Origin: a virus
IMG/VR virus record: IMGVR_UViG_3300045988_000107
Location: 1 to 5,691 of that record
Reading direction: 5' to 3' (one strand)
DNA length: 5,691 nt
Shown: positions 1-5,691 of the stretch, piece after piece
How positions within the stretch are numbered: the first letter of the stretch is position 1
Layout of the letters: each line of letters begins with the position of its first letter
Translations under genes and position numbers: made by a program
Notes under the pieces: model-generated
Databases searched by the model: none
Told to the model about the DNA's origin: nothing
What the model saw: the letters and a program-made list of their open reading frames with translations, nothing else

Positions 1-77
1 TACGGCTTTTCTTAAGTCGTTGATGGTTGCTGCGGTTACTGCTCCTAGATTTGCGCCTAAGTATGCCGTGTCTGCGG
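1..77. repeat. Terminal direct repeat, left copy (circular-closure overlap)
   Basis: The 77 nt TACGGCTTTTCTTAAG...CCGTGTCTGCGG are identical to 5615..5691, compared base by base. They lie inside the VP1 reading frame. Confidence 0.97.
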
Positions 78-936
78 TTGACCCTCCCGGCAGTGTGACA
101 CCTACTGCTGTGCTTGATCTGTCTCCGTTGTTGCTGTTTTGAATTCCTGCTCTCGCTTGCGTGTTGAAGAAGATTTCCGTTTTGTTGAGTGCCGTTCCAA
201 ATATTGTGAGCTTTTCGTCTTTGTATAAGCCGACAGGTGCATTACCTTCCATCGGCAGTGTTACTGCCGGCCCGCGCTGAGGATAAGGCATACAGCTTGT
301 GAAGTAGTCGTGAAATTTGTTTACAGGTAACAGGTTTCCGCCTCTGTACGCGTTGTTTTCCGCTGTCTGCACCTCATTTTCGTCTCCAAATCCGTATTCT
401 ACGCTTGCATCGTCTGTTTTTAATACTGCTGCGTTATCTACGTTTTCATCTCTGAAAAATTCATTCCAGATTTTTACATACGCTCTTATGGGTAGTGCGT
501 TAATGCTAAATCCTTTTTTAATTTTGGTCGGTACTCCCATATAGTCTAGTATTGATCTTTCGTGTGGTTTTGGTTCTGCATCCGTTCCTTTGATATTGAT
601 TTTCGGTACTGTGTATTCTTTTTTTGGCATCCATGGCGTTTCTTCTACTTCTCCCATGAAGTATTTGAAGTTGTCCCACAGAATTCTGTTAGGACAATAG
701 AAGTAGTAGAAGTCAATGAATGCATCGTCCATCACCGGATACTTCGGTGTGCTCATTCGAATGATTGCTGCTGTATTTACGTTGAAGGTATCGCCCGGTA
801 ATACCTCGTCAACATAAAATGGAATCAGCTTGCCGGAATCGAACGTTGTTAAAATTGTCTGGTCGCGGCTGAACCGCGTTCGACTTGCTTTCATTTCCGG
901 AATCTGGTTAAAGTGTCTTTCGTTGTTTCGATTCAC
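1..936 (-). CDS. VP1: Major capsid protein VP1 (Microviridae), 5-prime part: start codon plus first 312 codons. The gene crosses the circular junction and continues from 5614 down to 4898.
   Basis: I translated all 312 minus-strand codons from GTG at 936..934 to base 1 and found no stop. AGGAGG lies 7 nt upstream of the GTG. An in-frame stop at 957..955 leaves no upstream ATG. The downstream ATG at 894 has no SD and would remove conserved residues. Product starts MNRNNERHFNQIPEMKASRTRFSRDQTILTTFDSGKLIPFYVDEVLPGDTFNVNTAAIIRMSTPKYPVMDDAFIDFYYFYCPNRILWDNF, which matches the conserved microvirus capsid N-terminal signature (TTF..G.LIP....EVLPGDTF). It is absent from the ORF track because it runs off the window edge. 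Confidence 0.92.
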   Translation of the reverse strand, partial: MNRNNERHFNQIPEMKASRTRFSRDQTILTTFDSGKLIPFYVDEVLPGDTFNVNTAAIIRMSTPKYPVMDDAFIDFYYFYCPNRILWDNFKYFMGEVEETPWMPKKEYTVPKINIKGTDAEPKPHERSILDYMGVPTKIKKGFSINALPIRAYVKIWNEFFRDENVDNAAVLKTDDASVEYGFGDENEVQTAENNAYRGGNLLPVNKFHDYFTSCMPYPQRGPAVTLPMEGNAPVGLYKDEKLTIFGTALNKTEIFFNTQARAGIQNSNNGDRSSTAVGVTLPGGSTADTAYLGANLGAVTAATINDLRKAV

Positions 937-938
937 TT

Positions 939-1331
939 TTATTCCTCCTTTGCTTCAGGTTCTGTTTTTGGTTCTGCTGCTGCCATTTTTTGCATTTCTT
1001 CAAGTTTCATGGCGTTTGCCTGTGCGGTCGCTACCATACGATGATACTCGTGAATGTTCTGCGGAAATTCTGTAATATCTGTGTATGTATCGTTTAATGC
1101 TCCTTCCGACAGATTTTTCAGAAACTGCGGGTCAAAACTTGCTTTTCGGACAATGCTTTTGATATCGCACTCATCCGCATAGCTTTCAATTTCCTGTTGG
1201 ATGTCGATTGGTGCAGTTTCTTGCAGTACTTCTTTTCCTTTTTCGTCCTTTGTCCAAACGTATTGTTTTTGCTCTTTTTCTCCCGGGTTAGAAAAGAAGG
1301 GCTTTCGCCCTTCTTCGTATCGTTTATTCAT
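939..1331 (-). CDS. VP3: Internal scaffolding protein VP3 (gokushovirus type), 130 aa
   Basis: Track ORF. GGGAGGG lies 8 nt upstream of the ATG. It sits immediately upstream of VP1; its TAA stop is 2 nt before the VP1 GTG. The protein is acidic, and its DECDIKSIVRK segment matches the (D/E)ECDIN.I..K motif I recall from gokushovirus VP3 scaffolds. Its start overlaps the preceding gene by 8 nt. Confidence 0.7.
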   Translation of the reverse strand: MNKRYEEGRKPFFSNPGEKEQKQYVWTKDEKGKEVLQETAPIDIQQEIESYADECDIKSIVRKASFDPQFLKNLSEGALNDTYTDITEFPQNIHEYHRMVATAQANAMKLEEMQKMAAAEPKTEPEAKEE

Positions 1332-1563
1332 CCGCTTTACCCTCCCATGCCTTATCGTTCATGTTCTGGAATTCGCCGGTTTCATCTTCAAACGTTGCCA
1401 GTTTATAGCCTACGTAATCGTTCGGGGACTGCCCGATGAACGTGCTCTTGTCTTTCTGCATCACGTTGCACATCCGTGCGAACGTTTCGTTGTTTTTGCT
1501 TTCACCTACCCATGCATAACATTTTGCTACCTTGTCGTAGATGCCGTAGTAACTGTGAGTCAT
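1324..1563 (-). CDS. VP5: VP5/ORF5-like small nonstructural protein (gokushovirus type), 79 aa
   Basis: Track ORF. AGGAG lies 8 nt upstream of the ATG. The pattern IYDKVAKCY...NNETFARM...SPNDYVGYKLATFEDETGEF resembles the (I/V)YD.VA..(F/Y)...N...A.R.F...P.D(Y/F).LY.(I/L)G.FD..TG pattern I recall for gokushovirus ORF5 proteins. Position upstream of VP3 is typical. The assignment is from memory and not searched. Confidence 0.55.
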   Translation of the reverse strand: MTHSYYGIYDKVAKCYAWVGESKNNETFARMCNVMQKDKSTFIGQSPNDYVGYKLATFEDETGEFQNMNDKAWEGKADE

Positions 1564-1580
1564 TTTTTTTCTCCTTTCTC

Positions 1581-1703
1581 TTAGAGCCTGATTCCGCCAC
1601 GCATAGGTTTTTGGCTGAGGTTGATAGTTTTCGTCTTTCGTGCGGTTACGTTGAACATGCGGCGGTCTTTTGCGCCGCTCATCTTCTTACGATGTTGTGC
1701 CAT
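1581..1703 (-). CDS. ORF8: Small basic DNA-binding protein (gokushovirus ORF8, functional analogue of phiX174 J), 40 aa
   Basis: Not in the ORF track (too short); found by hand translation. ATG at 1703..1701, AAGGGAG 8 nt upstream, in-frame stop upstream at 1721..1719, TAA at 1583..1581. Product MAQHRKKMSGAKDRRMFNVTARKTKTINLSQKPMRGGIRL has 12 Lys/Arg in 40 residues. It ends in the PMRGGIR(L/F) C-terminal signature of gokushovirus ORF8 proteins. It overlaps the upstream 75-aa ORF by 17 nt. An alternative internal start at 1682 would give 33 aa. Confidence 0.75.
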   Translation of the reverse strand: MAQHRKKMSGAKDRRMFNVTARKTKTINLSQKPMRGGIRL

Positions 1704-1914
1704 CGTTGTACTCCCTTCTCATTAGTTCCATTTCGATTGCGTTTGCAAAGTCTTTCATCTGCCATATTTCATCTAGCAGTTTCTTTGCATCTTCAATATT
1801 GGATACTTTGCGTAACATTTTGTATTCTTTATCGATTTCTTTATATTTTCGATTGATCAGTTCTTCCAATGCGTCTGTGGTGCTGTCTCTGACATTCCAG
1901 CTTGTCCTTGTCAT
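1687..1914 (-). CDS. Hypothetical protein, 75 aa, charged and predicted helical, no recognisable family
   Basis: Track ORF. AGGAG lies 6 nt upstream of the ATG, inside the end of the preceding 40-aa ORF (GAAAAGGAGTAAAAAATG). Packing is tight on both sides. Sequence is rich in K/E/D heptad-like segments (EELINRKYKEIDKEYKMLRK). No transmembrane stretch and no motif I recognise. Confidence 0.6.
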   Translation of the reverse strand: MTRTSWNVRDSTTDALEELINRKYKEIDKEYKMLRKVSNIEDAKKLLDEIWQMKDFANAIEMELMRREYNDGTTS

Positions 1915-1917
1915 TTT

Positions 1918-2040
1918 TTACTCCTTTTCTTTTTCGTTGATGCTATCGTGCAGTGCATGATAGATTTCGTCAAGCTTTTCAAGGATGTCCATCATGAGAC
2001 GGATTGCCTGTTTGACGTCCTTAATCGAAATAAGTGCCAT
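1918..2040 (-). CDS. Hypothetical small protein, 40 aa, amphipathic and helical-looking
   Basis: Not in the ORF track; found by hand translation. The ATG at 2040..2038 starts 2 nt after the peptidase TAA (2044..2042). AGGGGG lies 6 nt upstream. TAA at 1920..1918 lies 3 nt before the next ATG (1914). Product MALISIKDVKQAIRLMMDILEKLDEIYHALHDSINEKEKE. It exactly fills the gap between two supported genes, which argues for coding, but it is short and has no recognisable homology. Confidence 0.45.
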   Translation of the reverse strand: MALISIKDVKQAIRLMMDILEKLDEIYHALHDSINEKEKE

Positions 2041-2041
2041 G

Positions 2042-2431
2042 TTATACCCCCTTTCTGTAGGTTTTGGTACGCGTGTCAATGTGTACCCATGTTTTGTACA
2101 CGATGATGCCGCAGCCAGACGGAATGATTTTGTTTAGTTTGTTGGCAATTTCTTTTGCGGTCATGCCTTCAATCCGAATGTCTGCCGCCATTCCTCGCAT
2201 GTGGTATGAGTACTTTGCACCGCCTACTTCTTTATTCCTTGGTGGGGTCCTGTATCCGCTGTTTATGTATACCGGCCTTCCGACTTGGTTTCTAAGGATA
2301 TCCAGGATTGATACTAAATAGCTATCGATGAATACGACTTGCGAACCATCTTTGCACGCAAATTCTCGCACTTTAAAGTGCTGCCCTACTTTTTCGTTTG
2401 CGTCTGTGTCCATTATGTAGCTTTTAATCAT
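2042..2431 (-). CDS. Zinc D,D-/L,D-peptidase of the M15 family (Peptidase_M15_3 / M15A-like), a putative peptidoglycan hydrolase (endolysin), 129 aa
   Basis: Track ORF 2042..2440 begins at a TTG. I prefer the in-frame ATG at 2431..2429, with AGAAAGG 9 nt upstream and abutting the TTG. Motifs: FKVREFACKDG, NSGYRTPPRNKEVGGAKYSYHMRGMAADI (H-x6-D zinc ligands) and WVHIDTR (third His ligand). This is the layout of M15-type cell-wall peptidases found in many phage endolysins. No N-terminal signal peptide or transmembrane segment is visible. Confidence 0.85.
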   Translation of the reverse strand: MIKSYIMDTDANEKVGQHFKVREFACKDGSQVVFIDSYLVSILDILRNQVGRPVYINSGYRTPPRNKEVGGAKYSYHMRGMAADIRIEGMTAKEIANKLNKIIPSGCGIIVYKTWVHIDTRTKTYRKGV

Positions 2432-2440
2432 TTTTGTCAA
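2412..2440 (-). promoter_or_regulatory. Candidate sigma70-type promoter P2 overlapping the first codons of the peptidase gene
   Basis: Minus strand has TTGACA (2440..2435, 6/6), a 17-nt spacer, then CATAAT (2417..2412, 5/6). This is the best consensus match I found in the window. The predicted start near 2405 lies downstream of the peptidase start codons. Promoters inside upstream genes are normal in phiX174-type microviruses. Confidence 0.35.
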
Positions 2441-2456
2441 CCTTTCTCTCGATTCT

Positions 2457-2485
2457 ATTCTACCCTATGTCAATAGCCTTTTCAA
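2457..2485 (-). promoter_or_regulatory. Candidate sigma70-type promoter P1 upstream of the peptidase gene
   Basis: Minus strand has TTGAAA (2485..2480), a 17-nt spacer, then TAGAAT (2462..2457). The predicted start near 2450..2449 would give a short leader containing the AGAAAGG SD of the peptidase gene. Each hexamer matches consensus at 5/6. A match of this quality is expected by chance about once in a window this size, so the support comes mainly from its position. Confidence 0.35.
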
Positions 2486-2678
2486 TATTTTTTGAGGATT
2501 GTAATAATTTGTAACTTTTTTCCTGCTCCTTTGTTTTGAGTGGCGCTTTAGCGCCTTGCCGTATGGAGCGCAGCGGAATGCGGCTTAATCCATTCCTTTT
2601 TAGCGCTGTGCGCGTTTTCAACACTTTCAACACTTTCAACAGGTTTTCCACAAAATGTTGTACAATGATTTTCGTCAT
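2460..2678 (-). CDS. Doubtful ORF, 72 aa, lying in the noncoding region; probably not a gene
   Basis: Track ORF. It is the only minus-strand ORF without a convincing SD (GAAAG at best). Its ATG sits in the loop of the CGTCA-TTT-TGACG palindrome. Its N-terminal VENLLKVLKVLK is the translation of the TTTCAACA iterons, which also occur outside the ORF. It spans GC-rich hairpins, and its TAG overlaps a candidate -10 box. Listed only for completeness. Confidence 0.2.
   Translation of the reverse strand: MTKIIVQHFVENLLKVLKVLKTRTALKRNGLSRIPLRSIRQGAKAPLKTKEQEKSYKLLQSSKNIEKAIDIG
2542..2613. other. Cluster of GC-rich stem-loops in the noncoding region
   Basis: Three elements. GGCGC-TTTA-GCGCC at 2542..2555. 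GGAATG-CGGCTTAATC-CATTCC at 2575..2596. An enclosing stem GCGCAGCG (2568..2575) with CGCTGTGCGC (2604..2613) that has a 2-nt bulge and shares base 2575 with the inner stem, so the two cannot both form at full length. Read directly; no energy calculation was possible. Confidence 0.5.
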
Positions 2679-2790
2679 TTTGACGAACTTTCAACATTTC
2701 AACAAGTTTTCAACAAAACTTTCAACAGTGTATTTCTCTTTTAATTTTCGTTTCATCGTTAAAATTTATTACTTTTCAACTTTTCCACAG
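2615..2790 (+). repeat. Iteron array: about ten same-orientation copies of T3-4C(A/C)ACA in three clusters
   Basis: Perfect TTTCAACA starts at 2616, 2625, 2634 (cluster A) and 2689, 2697, 2708, 2720 (cluster B). TTTTCCACA is at 2644..2652 and 2781..2789. TTTTCAAC is at 2773..2780 (cluster C). Higher-order 22-nt repeat: 2634..2655 TTTCAACAGGTTTTCCACAAAA versus 2697..2718 TTTCAACAAGTTTTCAACAAAA (20/22). A related TTTTCAATA lies at 2479..2487. Confidence 0.9.
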
Positions 2791-2793
2791 CCT

Positions 2794-2808
2794 CTACTAC
2801 TACTACTA
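2794..2808. repeat. Trinucleotide microsatellite (CTA)5, reading (TAG)5 on the coding strand
   Basis: CTACTACTACTACTA read directly from the sequence. It lies between iteron cluster C and the AT-rich/GC-rich element. Confidence 0.9.
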
Positions 2809-2822
2809 CAACAAGTTAATAT

Positions 2823-2876
2823 TATATCGCGCGTGCGCGCGTGCGCGCTATCGCGCGTGTGCGCATGTGCGTTATA
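2823..2876. repeat. Tandem pair of about 24-nt alternating pyrimidine-G tracts, forming an imperfect palindrome flanked by TATAT/TTATA
   Basis: Unit 1 at 2828..2851 is CGCGCGTGCGCGCGTGCGCGCTAT. Unit 2 at 2852..2875 is CGCGCGTGTGCGCATGTGCGTTAT. They share 20/24 identity as direct repeats. Each contains a 21-nt perfectly alternating Py-Pu run (2828..2848 and 2852..2872). It is by far the most GC-rich patch in an otherwise AT-rich noncoding region. Confidence 0.9.
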
Positions 2877-2885
2877 GATTATTTG

Positions 2886-2903
2886 ATAGACTGAATAGAC
2901 TGA
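2886..2903. repeat. Perfect tandem 9-mer ATAGACTGA x2
   Basis: ATAGACTGA occurs at 2886..2894 and 2895..2903. A partial third copy, ATAGATTA, is at 2874..2881. Confidence 0.85.
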
Positions 2904-2927
2904 TACATGGAGCCTTTAGGCGACAAA

Positions 2928-2959
2928 AGCCCAGTACCTTACTTGATAGGTACTGGGCT
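2928..2959 (-). terminator. Candidate intrinsic terminator downstream of VP4 (end of the single transcription unit)
   Basis: On the minus strand, starting 12 nt after the VP4 TAA: AGCCCAGTACC, loop TATCAAGTAA, GGTACTGGGCT. This is a perfect 11-bp stem with a 10-nt loop, followed by TTTGTCGCC. The T-run is short (CTTTTG counting the last stem base). The T-run exists only in the minus orientation. Confidence 0.5.
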
Positions 2960-2970
2960 AGGTGACACCG

Positions 2971-3990
2971 TTAGAGTGTCCCCCTCTTCTTCATCTGCTT
3001 CTTTATCACCCTTTCTTTTGTCTCGCATTGTTCTGCAAAGTTTGCGTTTTCATACTTTAGCCTGTTTTCTGCTATGACTGCTGCTTGTCTGTTTTGCTTA
3101 ATTCTCCACAATCTTTGTGGGTTTTCGGCTTCCATCATCTTTTCATAATAACGTGGAATTTGTGCGTGTTTTCCGTTTGTACATTGGATGTATCCTTGTC
3201 TCCATATCTCTTCCTTGTGCTCTTGGTAATAGTGGTCTCCCAGTCCCGGTTTTAGGCTCATACATGCGAATGGTTTTTGTTGGCCTAATTCGTAGTATTT
3301 GTTTGCTTTTTTCCCGTCTATTTCGTACATTTTTTTTGTGACGTATCCTGCAACATATCTGTATGTTTCTGGAACTGCTTGTGCTATCTGTATTTGACCC
3401 ATGCCCCATATGTTTTCTAGCCATTGACTTGTGAAGTATCCGTTGTGATGGATTTTATACAGGTTTTCAAGGTCTGTTGGTTTCCATCCATATAGAATCA
3501 TGTGGTAGTGTGGTCTTGCTGTCTGTTCTCCATACTCTCCTGCTACAAAATAGCGTAATTTGCCCTTGTAAGCCTTCCTGAGACGTTTTAGAAACTTTTG
3601 AATGTCTGGAAACAGTAACGTTTGGACGCTTTCTGGGCGTTTCTCTCCTGGCTTCCAGACGTATTGTACTTTTCGCATGATTTCGCCTGTTTTGAGTATC
3701 ATTCCTGGTACGTGTTCGTCATTATAAGTTAGTGTAATAAACCATACTTCTTCTCTTGGATAGTCTCGTGCTTCTAATTCTATACGTGTTGTCCAGTCCT
3801 CTCTCTGTCTTATTCTGCATCCGATGCACTGCCCGCATGGTATCAGCATTACATCTTTTCTAAACATCAAATCTTCATATTTTAGCTGTTTTCCCACTAA
3901 CTGAGAATAGCGGGAGAGTGAGTACACCCTCCCGCTAATGTTTTTGTCGTTAGGGTTGTACAGCCTTATTAATGGCTTGTAACAACTCAT
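2971..3990 (-). CDS. VP4: Replication initiation protein VP4 (rolling-circle HUH endonuclease, phiX174 gpA superfamily), 339 aa
   Basis: Track ORF. AGGTGA lies 9 nt upstream. The ATG overlaps the VP2 stop as ATGA. Motifs: PCGQCIGCRIRQREDW (Cys cluster typical of gokushovirus VP4), WFITLTY (motif 1), RPHYHMILYG (HUH motif 2) and RYVAGYVTKK (motif 3, two Tyr three residues apart as in phiX174 gpA). Stop TAA at 2973..2971. Confidence 0.93.
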   Translation of the reverse strand: MSCYKPLIRLYNPNDKNISGRVYSLSRYSQLVGKQLKYEDLMFRKDVMLIPCGQCIGCRIRQREDWTTRIELEARDYPREEVWFITLTYNDEHVPGMILKTGEIMRKVQYVWKPGEKRPESVQTLLFPDIQKFLKRLRKAYKGKLRYFVAGEYGEQTARPHYHMILYGWKPTDLENLYKIHHNGYFTSQWLENIWGMGQIQIAQAVPETYRYVAGYVTKKMYEIDGKKANKYYELGQQKPFACMSLKPGLGDHYYQEHKEEIWRQGYIQCTNGKHAQIPRYYEKMMEAENPQRLWRIKQNRQAAVIAENRLKYENANFAEQCETKERVIKKQMKKRGTL

Positions 3991-4859
3991 CTTAAGTAAT
4001 CACCTGGCCTTCTTTTTTCTCCGTAGGACCCTGTTTTGTTCTGAGGCGCTTGATAGTTGTTCTTTTGGTCGCCCCTTTTTGTGTCGCTCTTTTTTGGTAC
4101 GTTTTTGTCAATGGCTTCGCCTGTGTCGTCTCCAATTTCGGTTAGCGTTTTCTGCAGTCCGTATGGACTCATGTGTGTACTGCTGAGCATTTGCTGCCAA
4201 CTTTGTGCCGCATTGAACCAGTCGCTTTTACTCCAACTGCTGCTTTCGTATGCGTTAGGTACAAATCCTCCGCTTCGGCTTACTCCTAGTGCACTGCTGC
4301 TTGCAAGTCCCATACTTGCTCCACTGATTGTTCCTGCACTTCCTCCCGGTGTGCTTGCGCCGCCGTTTGCGAATGCTAAGATAGGGTTAAGCCCTGCTTT
4401 TTTCATGTCCTCAACGGCTCGCTGGTACGCTGTGCTAGACATGTGTTCTTGCCATTCACGGTTTGCTAGGGCTTCTGCGCTGTTGTAGTTCATGGCAGTG
4501 CTGTTTTCAATGTGGTTATATACGCCTTGCATAATTGACTGTAATGTATTGTAACCCATCTGTTTTAGCATACTTTGGCTGTTGTACTTGGCTTGCATGG
4601 CGCTTTCTTGCCCTTGATATGCATATGCCTGTTTTAGCCATTCATCAACCTGTTGTACGTTGGTACCCGATTGGCTTCCGCTTTCGGAGTGTCCGCCGCC
4701 CTGGCTTGTGCTGCCGCCGCTACTTTGGCTATTGCCTGTCTGCCCCCATCCGCCAAACGCTCCAGCTACGTTTTTAGCTGCTCCTGCAAAATTTCCGATT
4801 GTGCTTGCTACGTTTCCCGCTACGTTTAGTGCTGTTAAGAGCCCAGATAATCCACTCAT
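3987..4859 (-). CDS. VP2: Minor capsid / DNA pilot protein VP2, 290 aa
   Basis: Track ORF. The central segment NSAEALANREWQEHMSSTAYQRAVEDMKKAGLNPILAFANGGASTPGG matches the conserved gokushovirus VP2 core (..ERMSNTAYQRA.EDMKKAGLNP.LA..). It sits directly downstream of VP1, as is typical. The N-terminus is Gly/Ala-rich and is followed by a Gly/Ser/Gln low-complexity linker. Confidence 0.9.
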   Translation of the reverse strand: MSGLSGLLTALNVAGNVASTIGNFAGAAKNVAGAFGGWGQTGNSQSSGGSTSQGGGHSESGSQSGTNVQQVDEWLKQAYAYQGQESAMQAKYNSQSMLKQMGYNTLQSIMQGVYNHIENSTAMNYNSAEALANREWQEHMSSTAYQRAVEDMKKAGLNPILAFANGGASTPGGSAGTISGASMGLASSSALGVSRSGGFVPNAYESSSWSKSDWFNAAQSWQQMLSSTHMSPYGLQKTLTEIGDDTGEAIDKNVPKKSDTKRGDQKNNYQAPQNKTGSYGEKRRPGDYLR

Positions 4860-4860
4860 T

Positions 4861-4887
4861 TAAAAATAGCCCGGATTTCTCCGGGCT
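4861..4887 (-). terminator. Candidate partial terminator (attenuator) hairpin between VP1 and VP2
   Basis: The minus strand between the VP1 TAA (4900..4898) and the VP2 ATG (4859) reads GAAAGGAGGA-AGCCCGG-AGAAAT-CCGGGCT-ATTTTTAA-ATG. This gives a 7-bp GC-rich stem (4887..4868) with a 6-nt loop, followed by ATTTTT. Confidence 0.5.
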
Positions 4888-4897
4888 TCCTCCTTTC

Positions 4898-5691
4898 TTA
4901 CAGCTTGTACAAGCCCGGTACGCTGTACAACGGCATCCGTCTTGTCGTTTTGTTTGCTACGCGGATAGCTCCGAAAAATTGCGGCTCATTCTCCACGATG
5001 AGTGTTCGCGCAATTTCGTTTTTGCTTTCTTGCATCCAGCCTTGCGATAGTGTTGGTACGGTTGAATAATTGTCTGCGTAGTGCCAGAAATCTAACGTTC
5101 CTGTTGCGTTGCTTCGCATGAGGCCGCTTACCCGGTTTGGTTTCATTCGGTAGTCCGCCCAGGCCTCCTGGTAGCCGAACGTTTCTTCGTCCGTTGTATT
5201 GCCGGTCAACATGATTTCCTTTTTCTTTACGGGCTGTTCGCCTAGATTTGCAAACTGCGGTACATAGTAGTCCAGTCTGTCTTTTCGGCTCCAGAAACGC
5301 TCCAAGCCCTGCTGATAACTGCGATTGTGTCGCACACAACAGACACCAATTACAAACCCATGCTCTTCAAAAGATTTGGTAAAAGAGCTTTCGTTTATCG
5401 GCGTCACTGACATTGCACCAGTTTCGCCCAGCGATGACTTATCGTTTTCCGCTGTCTGCACGATTTGGTTGATATTGATGTGATATCTTCCGCCGCCCAG
5501 GTATTCTGGAATCTGTACCGTTTTGTCGCTGATAGTTACATTCCACAGTGCTTGTACCTGTTCGCGGTATCGGCTGCCGCCTCGTGCGAGCGCTTCGTAG
5601 TACTGCTGTACTGCTACGGCTTTTCTTAAGTCGTTGATGGTTGCTGCGGTTACTGCTCCTAGATTTGCGCCTAAGTATGCCGTGTCTGCGG
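4898..5691 (-). CDS. VP1: Major capsid protein VP1, 3-prime part. Same gene as 1..936; bases 5615..5691 duplicate 1..77.
   Basis: The frame is continuous with 1..936 across the junction (position 1 equals 5615; 936 nt is exactly 312 codons). Hand translation upstream of track ORF 4898..5461 is open to the window end: ...TAATINDLRKAVAVQQYYEALARGGSRYREQVQALWNVTISDKTVQIPEYLGGGRYHININQIVQTAEND... This carries the conserved capsid motifs INDLR, ARGG.RY and PEYLGG. The M shown at 5461 in the track is an internal GTG (Val). Stop is TAA at 4900..4898. The whole gene is 1653 nt, 550 aa, on the 5614-nt circle. Confidence 0.92.
   Translation of the reverse strand, partial: ADTAYLGANLGAVTAATINDLRKAVAVQQYYEALARGGSRYREQVQALWNVTISDKTVQIPEYLGGGRYHININQIVQTAENDKSSLGETGAMSVTPINESSFTKSFEEHGFVIGVCCVRHNRSYQQGLERFWSRKDRLDYYVPQFANLGEQPVKKKEIMLTGNTTDEETFGYQEAWADYRMKPNRVSGLMRSNATGTLDFWHYADNYSTVPTLSQGWMQESKNEIARTLIVENEPQFFGAIRVANKTTRRMPLYSVPGLYKL
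5615..5691. repeat. Terminal direct repeat, right copy (circular-closure overlap)
   Basis: Identical to 1..77. The unique genome length is therefore 5614 nt. Confidence 0.97.

Follow-up and report, generated by a model that had tools for sequence, protein, structure and literature searches.

Genes for M15_3-type zinc peptidases have been known in the Microviridae since 2012, when they were found in 11 of 81 assembled genomes, five of them Gokushovirinae. That study showed a horizontal-transfer origin, noted holin neighbours beside the bacterial and phage homologues, proposed an endolysin role, and reported a Faecalibacterium-type affiliation with speculation on Gram-positive hosts (Roux et al., 2012; PMC3394797). 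Later work likewise placed such peptidases in a minority of metagenomic microviruses (Kirchberger, 2020, 2022), which agrees with what an earlier note on the DNA analysed here had stated. Marine Occultatumvirinae isolates mostly carry an M15 peptidase. The gene considered here encodes a 129-amino-acid (aa) M15_3 peptidase in IMG/VR virus record IMGVR_UViG_3300045988_000107, of which positions 1 to 5,691 (the whole stretch analysed, hereafter the window) were examined. Both the presence of an M15 gene in gokushoviruses and its proposed endolysin role have therefore already been published, and the gene is common in this virus group. What the present analysis adds is a clean negative: across roughly 90 genomes of the clade, no credible transmembrane protein is encoded in the coding-strand frames. 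The enzyme is read here, with a probability of about 0.55, as a soluble, cytoplasmically made endolysin that acts after a membrane breach common to the whole clade.

The closest described systems are other gut Gokushovirinae, namely KX513868, KX513876 and KX513877, the ‘Gokushovirus WZ-2015a’ genomes KT264791 and KT264793, and the pig-faeces Microviridae of the MG945xxx series, in which the peptidase shares 60–89% identity with that of the window and is annotated in GenBank as ‘peptidase M15’. They have the same backbone and the same slot (VP4 – peptidase – orf40 – … – VP3 – VP1), and the window, which shows no substantive difference from them, is another member of the group. In GenBank, the genome closest to it is ‘Human gut gokushovirus’ KX513868, with which it shares about 83% nucleotide identity across 87% of the genome. 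Gokushoviruses rank with the most abundant phages of the mammalian gut, and the peptidase puzzle is part of the wider question of how they lyse their hosts: a missing recognisable lysis or membrane gene is a general and previously noted property of the group, peptidase-less relatives included. In a recent survey, 21% of phage genomes were likewise annotated with an ‘endolysin alone’.

Outside the microviruses, the nearest homologues are the annotated endolysins of Faecalibacterium phages Toutatis (AUV56799) and Lelie (XAI97673). Like the window protein, these are single-domain M15 enzymes (137 aa, about 45% identity over the full length) with a similar positive charge, but each is followed directly by two genes for transmembrane proteins, the presumptive holins, which the window microvirus lacks. 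Peptidases of Clostridia prophages differ in that many have extra domains (200–290 aa), absent from the microvirus enzyme. The D-Ala-D-Ala carboxypeptidase of Streptomyces albus G (1lbu; MEROPS M15A) has the same fold and the same H-x6-D…H zinc site at 21% identity, but it has an N-terminal wall-binding domain and a secretion signal, and the window protein has neither. Fold and zinc site also relate the enzyme to VanX/VanY, ChiX, LdcB, Ply500, the T5/RB49-type endolysins and the hedgehog N-domain. A related domain occurs in the E. coli L,D-endopeptidase MepK (YcbK; Peptidase_M15_2/DUF882), as seen in matches to Pfam PF05951 (E = 3.4e-8) and NCBIfam NF053624 (E = 3e-13). At 49.9 bits against the equivalog cut-off of 185, however, the window protein is not a MepK orthologue, and it has no export signal.

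Two further comparisons concern lysis by very small genomes. Gp7 of the Tainavirinae microvirus Ebor is likewise an accessory microvirus wall hydrolase, with activity verified by zymogram, but Ebor belongs to another subfamily, infects a diderm Rhodobacter host and encodes a 45-aa predicted membrane protein, Gp1, which the window clade lacks (PMC11980548). Protein E of phiX174 and the other single-gene lysis (Sgl) proteins also achieve lysis from very small genomes without a multi-gene cassette. They are not enzymes, however, but inhibitors of precursor synthesis that are usually anchored in the membrane and overprinted, whereas the window peptidase is a free-standing, soluble, horizontally acquired enzyme. 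Judged from its sequence, it falls outside the Sgl definition of a non-enzymatic inducer of autolysis.

Identity and expression of the peptidase

The peptidase open reading frame (ORF) on the minus strand can be read as 132 aa from a TTG codon (2042..2440) or as 129 aa from an ATG codon (2042..2431). The ATG model is taken as correct because the spacing of its Shine–Dalgarno (SD) sequence fits (Table 1), the alternative TTG directly abuts that same GAAAGG, and most close public homologues are exactly 129 aa long. The coordinates and length given in the earlier note therefore stand.

The product is, by profile and by structural model, a Peptidase_M15_3 zinc peptidase of the LAS fold. The profile search that the earlier note had proposed returned Pfam Peptidase_M15_3 (PF08291) at E = 1.6e-22 and 80.2 bits, against a cut-off of 23.2, over profile positions 2–108 of 108, and PHROG 894 (‘endolysin’) matches at E = 8e-41. 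The note had named SGYRTP, SYHMRGMAAD and WVHID as the zinc-site motifs; all three are present and their ligands are invariant. In an alignment of 35 single-domain homologues reaching down to about 38% identity, the invariant positions are Y60, R61, N66, S75, H77, G80, A82, D84, G108, H117 and D119. Structural comparison, also proposed in the note, led to the same assignment. The AlphaFold2 model, built from a 40-sequence alignment, is confident (predicted local distance difference test score, pLDDT, 97.6; predicted template modelling score, pTM, 0.90), and its best solved match in Foldseek is 1lbu (probability 1.00, TM-score 0.63). Residues R61, H77 and D84 align with R138, H154 and D161 of that enzyme, the latter two of which are zinc ligands there. 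VanXYc, VanY, hedgehog N-domains, ChiX, LdcB, Ply500 and the RB49 and LysECD7 endolysins, all of the LAS fold, follow in the ranking. In the viral model library BFVD, the best matches are tailed-phage ‘peptidases’ with TM-scores of 0.93–0.96. The protein is predicted from these data to hydrolyse peptide bonds of peptidoglycan in a zinc-dependent manner.

Compared with seven relatives, the gene has a ratio of nonsynonymous to synonymous substitution (dN/dS) of 0.08–0.16, indicating strong purifying selection. That it might be a non-functional hitch-hiker or a chance ORF deserves practically no credence, since this reading is refuted by the conservation data: the dN/dS values, the invariant catalytic residues, the SD sequence, the preserved length of 129 aa and the viral-like base composition. 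Its accessory status is all that could be cited in favour of such a reading. The earlier note had also described the gene as accessory cargo, and gokushovirus relatives without a peptidase do exist.

Search for an export signal and a membrane partner

Neither a signal peptide nor a signal-anchor-release (SAR) domain is apparent in the peptidase, as judged by hydropathy and the structural model rather than by a dedicated SignalP-type predictor. Its N-terminus, MIKSYIMDTDANEK, is hydrophilic, and residues 2–6 form an integral beta-strand of the fold (pLDDT 98). Potential membrane partners were sought by scanning for transmembrane segments with a hydropathy threshold, which is not a trained predictor. 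Among coding-strand ORFs of at least 20 aa in the window, none reaches a Kyte–Doolittle 19-mer mean (KD19) of 1.6, the best value being 1.43, and across the three coding-strand frames every stop-free 17-aa window, whether or not it has a start codon, stays at or below 1.54. The earlier note had claimed that there is neither an export signal nor a holin candidate, and these scans bore out both points. Measured against a canonical holin–endolysin system, the window thus has an enzyme of an endolysin family and has neither an encoded holin nor a signal peptide or SAR domain.

The same scan (KD of at least 1.6) is blank in 11 of the 12 peptidase-carrying GenBank relatives. The sole exception is Dulem virus 195 (PP511409), a more distant peptidase carrier with a T-rich coding strand (32% T), in which an annotated 35-aa hypothetical protein with a clear transmembrane segment, LLLFFMVLIVLSCVPGLIL, lies directly after VP2 (2593–2700). 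A holin-like partner may therefore exist in some microvirus lineages that carry the peptidase. Among near-complete IMG/VR relatives, 61 of 71 have no 17-aa window of 1.7 or more, and the set as a whole offers no credible transmembrane candidate. The six highest-scoring of the ten remaining genomes were inspected, and each segment either lacks a start codon or SD sequence or arose artificially where contig ends were joined; the other four contain previously seen non-transmembrane segments, such as the peptidase core or an iteron ORF. As a positive control, the approach recovered the transmembrane neighbours of the Toutatis and Lelie endolysins, where the endolysin is followed by a 131-aa protein with an N-terminal transmembrane segment (KD 2.5–2.6) and then by a 105-aa protein with a C-terminal one (KD 1.9). 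In Clostridia genome loci with full flanks, a same-strand transmembrane ORF was found within 1.2 kb of the homologue in 23 of 25 cases, a crude count that includes alternative-frame ORFs.

The two small ORFs downstream of the peptidase gene are not specific to it. The ATG of orf40 (MALISIKDVKQAIRLMMDILEKLDEIYHALHDSINEKEKE) lies 1 nucleotide (nt) after the peptidase TAA and is translationally coupled to this stop, and the ORF is nearly always unannotated in GenBank relatives. With a minimum coverage of 80%, tblastn found homologues in 34 microvirus records, and these include genomes without a peptidase: five peptidase-less gokushoviruses (L015–L019) have it at 69–72% identity. On this comparison, orf40 is a clade-wide gene and not a peptidase-specific partner. 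The case for orf75 fails in the same way, as a homologue is present in peptidase-less relatives (a 68-aa ORF at 4350–4556 of L015; 36% identity over 36 aa, pairwise BLASTP E = 6e-7). In the peptidase-less genomes this homologue lies upstream of orf40, whereas in the window orf75 lies downstream, a difference that points to local rearrangement of gene order in the accessory region. With a clean negative for transmembrane proteins and flanking ORFs that are non-specific, the holin question is sharply posed.

The earlier note had also considered a lysis partner embedded in another frame, and this suggestion did not hold, as the sense frames are stop-ridden, the antisense frames are not conserved and no transmembrane-like stretch was found in the coding-strand frames. 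Sense frames overlapping the peptidase gene contain 3–17 stops each in the genomes compared, the lone exception being the +2 frame of L010 with one stop. A hydrophobic 85-aa antisense ORF (2064–2321, plus strand) was rejected because the antisense frames are interrupted at differing places in each relative. Other hydrophobic ORFs of the plus strand were set aside as compositional, since that strand is 37.5% T and yields hydrophobic codons for this reason. The coding (virion-sense) strand is correspondingly A-rich and T-poor, with 37.5% A and 18.3% T in the window, about 14% T at third positions and 17–19% T across the clade. The skew is seen in the window, in ten peptidase carriers (L001–L010), in the five peptidase-less genomes and in the IMG/VR relatives L080–L159. 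The T-poor coding strand accounts for both the few hydrophobic codons in every one of its frames and the spurious hydrophobic ORFs on the antisense strand.

The five peptidase-less relatives retain the orf40, VP8-like, ORF5, VP3, VP4 and VP2 genes, and in these genomes no coding-strand ORF of at least 25 aa reaches a KD19 of 1.6. In KT264799, one of the five, a 24-aa hydrophobic ORF, MVDVIQSIAIMLLSIAVIINAKRR, occupies 3972–4046 in the slot between VP4 and orf40. It has a strong SD sequence (AAAGGAG) and follows a terminator-like hairpin with a T-run, and no such ORF was found in the remaining four. Its sequence suggests that it is possibly a small membrane peptide, and as such a candidate for an alternative lysis gene.

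Apart from the buried core of the peptidase, the most membrane-like segment of any confirmed gene in the window is the Gly/Ala-rich N-terminus of VP2 (about nt 4746–4859), as the earlier note had observed of this genome. Its KD19 is 1.17 in the window and 0.9–1.6 in relatives, in most of which it ranks near the top. Microvirus pilot proteins insert into membranes, and excess pilot protein could conceivably use this N-terminal helix to make a late membrane lesion through which the peptidase escapes, VP2 then serving as a holin equivalent. Residues 1–27 are uncharged and have small-xxx-small spacing, and the segment is among the most hydrophobic on the coding strand in the window and in most relatives. 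The hydropathy nevertheless falls short of the usual transmembrane threshold, relatives without a peptidase have the feature as well, so that it is not specific to the system, and VP2 is not known to take part in lysis in any microvirus. A holin-like function for VP2 is accordingly regarded as quite improbable.

Possible routes from the cytoplasm to the cell wall

The favoured reading, that the peptidase is an endolysin awaiting a clade-wide membrane breach, can be set out in four steps. The enzyme is translated from its own SD sequence and ATG codon as a bare 129-aa catalytic domain. It would bind zinc through H77, D84 and H117, in the fold and ligand arrangement described above, and would cut peptide stems or cross-links of the wall. 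It would stay in the cytoplasm until the lysis trigger of the clade compromises the membrane, and, once released, would quickly break down the thick wall of its host, a monoderm member of the Clostridia, and so free the progeny. Cytoplasmic retention is suggested because the enzyme has no leader and the genome no holin. The trigger would have to be clade-wide because peptidase-less relatives likewise lack a membrane-protein gene, and a role in lysis is proposed because the nearest tailed-phage homologues are endolysins adjoining transmembrane proteins.

Several points weigh against this reading. Activity, substrate and timing of the peptidase are predictions for this clade, the membrane-crossing step is wholly inferred, and the scans of the clade genomes found no candidate for the membrane trigger. 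A hydropathy scan would miss amphipathic or weakly hydrophobic membrane-active proteins, such as the Gly-zipper-like N-terminus of VP2 or orf40, and with 18% T on the coding strand, the absence of hydrophobic stretches in alternative frames is partly compositional. The peptidase-less genomes used for comparison form a fairly distant subclade (47–48% identity in VP4), and the assignment to a Clostridia host is indirect.

The same negative results could be explained without any membrane partner if the enzyme were sufficient for lysis by itself. It might attack D-Ala-D-Ala precursors from the cytoplasmic side in the manner of VanX, VanXY or VanY, or be exported without a signal through a host pathway. 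In the precursor variant, DD-peptidase action on UDP-MurNAc-pentapeptide or the dipeptide would starve cross-linking, making the protein an enzymatic ‘protein antibiotic’. The missing leader and the absence of a credible transmembrane partner in about 90 genomes are consistent with this, as are the best solved-structure matches, which are the DD-peptidase 1lbu and then the soluble VanXYc and VanY; small lytic phages also generally use single effectors that act from the cytoplasmic side on the peptidoglycan precursor pathway. Single-domain homologues at ~45% identity, however, lie in holin-containing cassettes of tailed phages, where they must accumulate without premature lysis, and no sequence trait separates the microvirus enzymes from those of tailed phages. 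Cationic charge was rejected as a sign of intrinsic membrane activity, as it is +9 in the window protein and +10 in the holin-associated Toutatis enzyme. Since Sgl proteins by definition have no bacteriolytic enzyme activity, self-sufficient lysis of this kind would also be an unprecedented new class. It is considered unlikely, and the same holds for its strongest form, in which the leaderless M15 enzyme would be a new enzymatic single-gene lysis effector for monoderm hosts, working without a membrane partner through VanXY-like destruction of precursors or through a Clostridia-specific signal-independent route.

If lysis without a membrane partner were true, it would extend the single-gene lysis concept to an enzymatic effector and to hosts of the Gram-positive type, and would provide a compact lytic module against Clostridia. 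With about 10 genes and no transmembrane protein, the genome would be a minimal system for defining such a pathway. If the peptidase merely follows a clade-wide membrane trigger, which is held to be the likelier case, the finding is an ordinary one.

Origin, host and genome organisation

The peptidase family is widespread. More than 1,500 protein clusters (at 90% identity) match the window protein at E = 1e-5 or better, mostly on contigs of 5.4–6.0 kb, and the best 120 of these share 84–93% identity with it; the wider family comprises 13,856 representatives at 50% identity. The gene matches the viral genome in base composition and third-position usage and differs in both from the Faecalibacterium phage homologue, which suggests that the acquisition is old. 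Peptidase and VP1 identities to the window are weakly coupled (r = 0.28, n = 83; L001–L012 and L080–L159), with values of 91% and 42%, respectively, in L099 and of 47% and 75% in L010. This near lack of coupling implies that gut microviruses have exchanged the peptidase module repeatedly. In the window itself, peptidase and backbone have different nearest relatives, which again points to such exchange. Module exchange has been reported for another microvirus pair (Kirchberger et al., 2022). Most likely, to judge from these comparisons, the peptidase is an old acquisition from tailed phages infecting Clostridia (Oscillospiraceae- or Faecalibacterium-like) and was later exchanged among gut gokushoviruses.

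The weak coupling to VP1 also bears on a possible role in entry, in which a virion-carried peptidase would locally open the thick wall during DNA delivery. A thick monoderm wall would hinder entry, tailed phages also have M15A domains fused to their tail-hub (Gp5-like) proteins and to further large structural proteins, and Ebor Gp7 was detected in trace amounts in virions (PMC11980548), a finding that is compatible with contamination. The window peptidase, by contrast, is free-standing and not fused to VP1 or VP2, its gene lies in the accessory slot that separates VP4 from the small ORFs, a non-structural position, and its closest tailed-phage relatives are annotated endolysins beside transmembrane proteins. 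Movement of the gene independently of VP1 is also hard to square with a specific partner packaged in the capsid. An entry enzyme is for these reasons held to be rather improbable.

When each bacterial species was represented by one genome, the closest cellular homologues came almost exclusively from Clostridia, at 35–50% identity (Oscillospiraceae, Faecalibacterium, Oscillibacter, Intestinimonas, Flavonifractor, Lachnospiraceae and Peptococcaceae). No integrated copy of the virus was found in this set, in which the best match, at 50% identity, lies in prophage-like Clostridia loci. Gut Gokushoviridae have been predicted to infect Clostridiales (Shah et al., 2023). Strong SD sequences of the AGGAGG type precede most genes of the window virus, a pattern that fits a Firmicutes-like host.

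The window is a complete circular microvirus genome with a unit of 5,614 nt and 44% GC. An exact 77-nt direct repeat at its ends (1–77 and 5615–5691) is the assembly overlap of the circle, and the VP1 gene spans the junction, so that ORF lists made from the linear window contain merely its C-terminal 187 aa. All of its roughly 10 genes are on the minus strand (Table 1). The virus is a gokushovirus, being of the circular ~4.5–6 kb type with VP1, VP2, a VP4 replication initiator, VP3 and ORF5/VP5 on one strand. The order VP4 – M15 – orf40 is identical across the ten genomes L001–L010.

Table 1. Positions of genes, motifs and expression signals in the window.
Feature	Position	Strand	Details
VP1 major capsid protein	936..1 joined to 5614..4898	minus	550 aa; GTG start; Pfam Phage_F
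VP3 scaffold	939..1331	minus	Pfam Chlamy_scaf
ORF5/VP5	1324..1563	minus	Pfam Phage_ORF5
VP8-like basic 40-aa ORF	1581..1703	minus	
orf75, hydrophilic 75-aa ORF	1687..1914	minus	strong SD AAGGAG; no transmembrane segment
orf40, 40-aa ORF	1918..2040	minus	strong SD AGGGGG; amphipathic-helix pattern
M15_3 peptidase coding sequence (M15A-type, LAS-fold)	2042..2431	minus	129 aa; 14.6 kDa; isoelectric point 9.7; stop 2042-2044
WVHID motif	2075..2089	minus	residues 115-119; H117 is the third zinc ligand; D119 invariant
SYHMRGMAAD motif	2180..2209	minus	residues 75-84; H77 and D84 are the first two zinc ligands (H-x6-D)
SGYRTP motif	2243..2260	minus	residues 58-63; Y60 and R61 invariant
Shine–Dalgarno GAAAGG	2441..2446	minus	9 nt upstream of the ATG at 2431
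Promoter-like TTGAAA-17-TAGAAT	2457..2485	minus	directly upstream of the peptidase gene; 10/12 consensus positions, consensus match only
Intergenic region upstream of the peptidase	2432..2970		about 540 nt; repeat finder
VP4 replication initiator	2971..3990	minus	Pfam REP_ORF2-G2P, E = 6e-17; upstream boundary of the accessory slot holding the peptidase
VP2 DNA pilot protein	3987..4859	minus	290 aa; PHROG 8742 ‘pilot protein’, E = 5.6e-122

The gap that separates the VP1 stop (4898) from the VP2 start (4859) contains a GC-rich hairpin, GCCCGG-AGAAAT-CCGGGC, at 4869–4886 on the minus strand, with TATTTTT after it. Spotted in the sequence by eye rather than by a terminator scan, it resembles an intrinsic terminator or an attenuator.

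The intergenic region between VP4 and the peptidase gene is rich in repeats. A 72-aa ORF within it (2460–2678, minus strand) is probably not a gene, as it has no SD sequence, is conserved in its N-terminal part alone and overlies iterons; it is encoded across GTTGAAA units and hence reads ‘VENLLKVLKVLK’. At least nine TTTCAAC iterons (GTTGAAA on the coding strand) are present, with a notable part at 2612–2790. They are accompanied by an alternating purine–pyrimidine tract, GCGCGTGC, at 2817–2872, with an 8-nt period and five overlapping copies, and by a perfect 12-bp hairpin at 2928–2959, just past the VP4 stop. The stretch 2612–2826 shares about 80% nucleotide identity with otherwise divergent gokushoviruses, once in inverted orientation, and the intergenic repeats are probably an origin or regulatory element.

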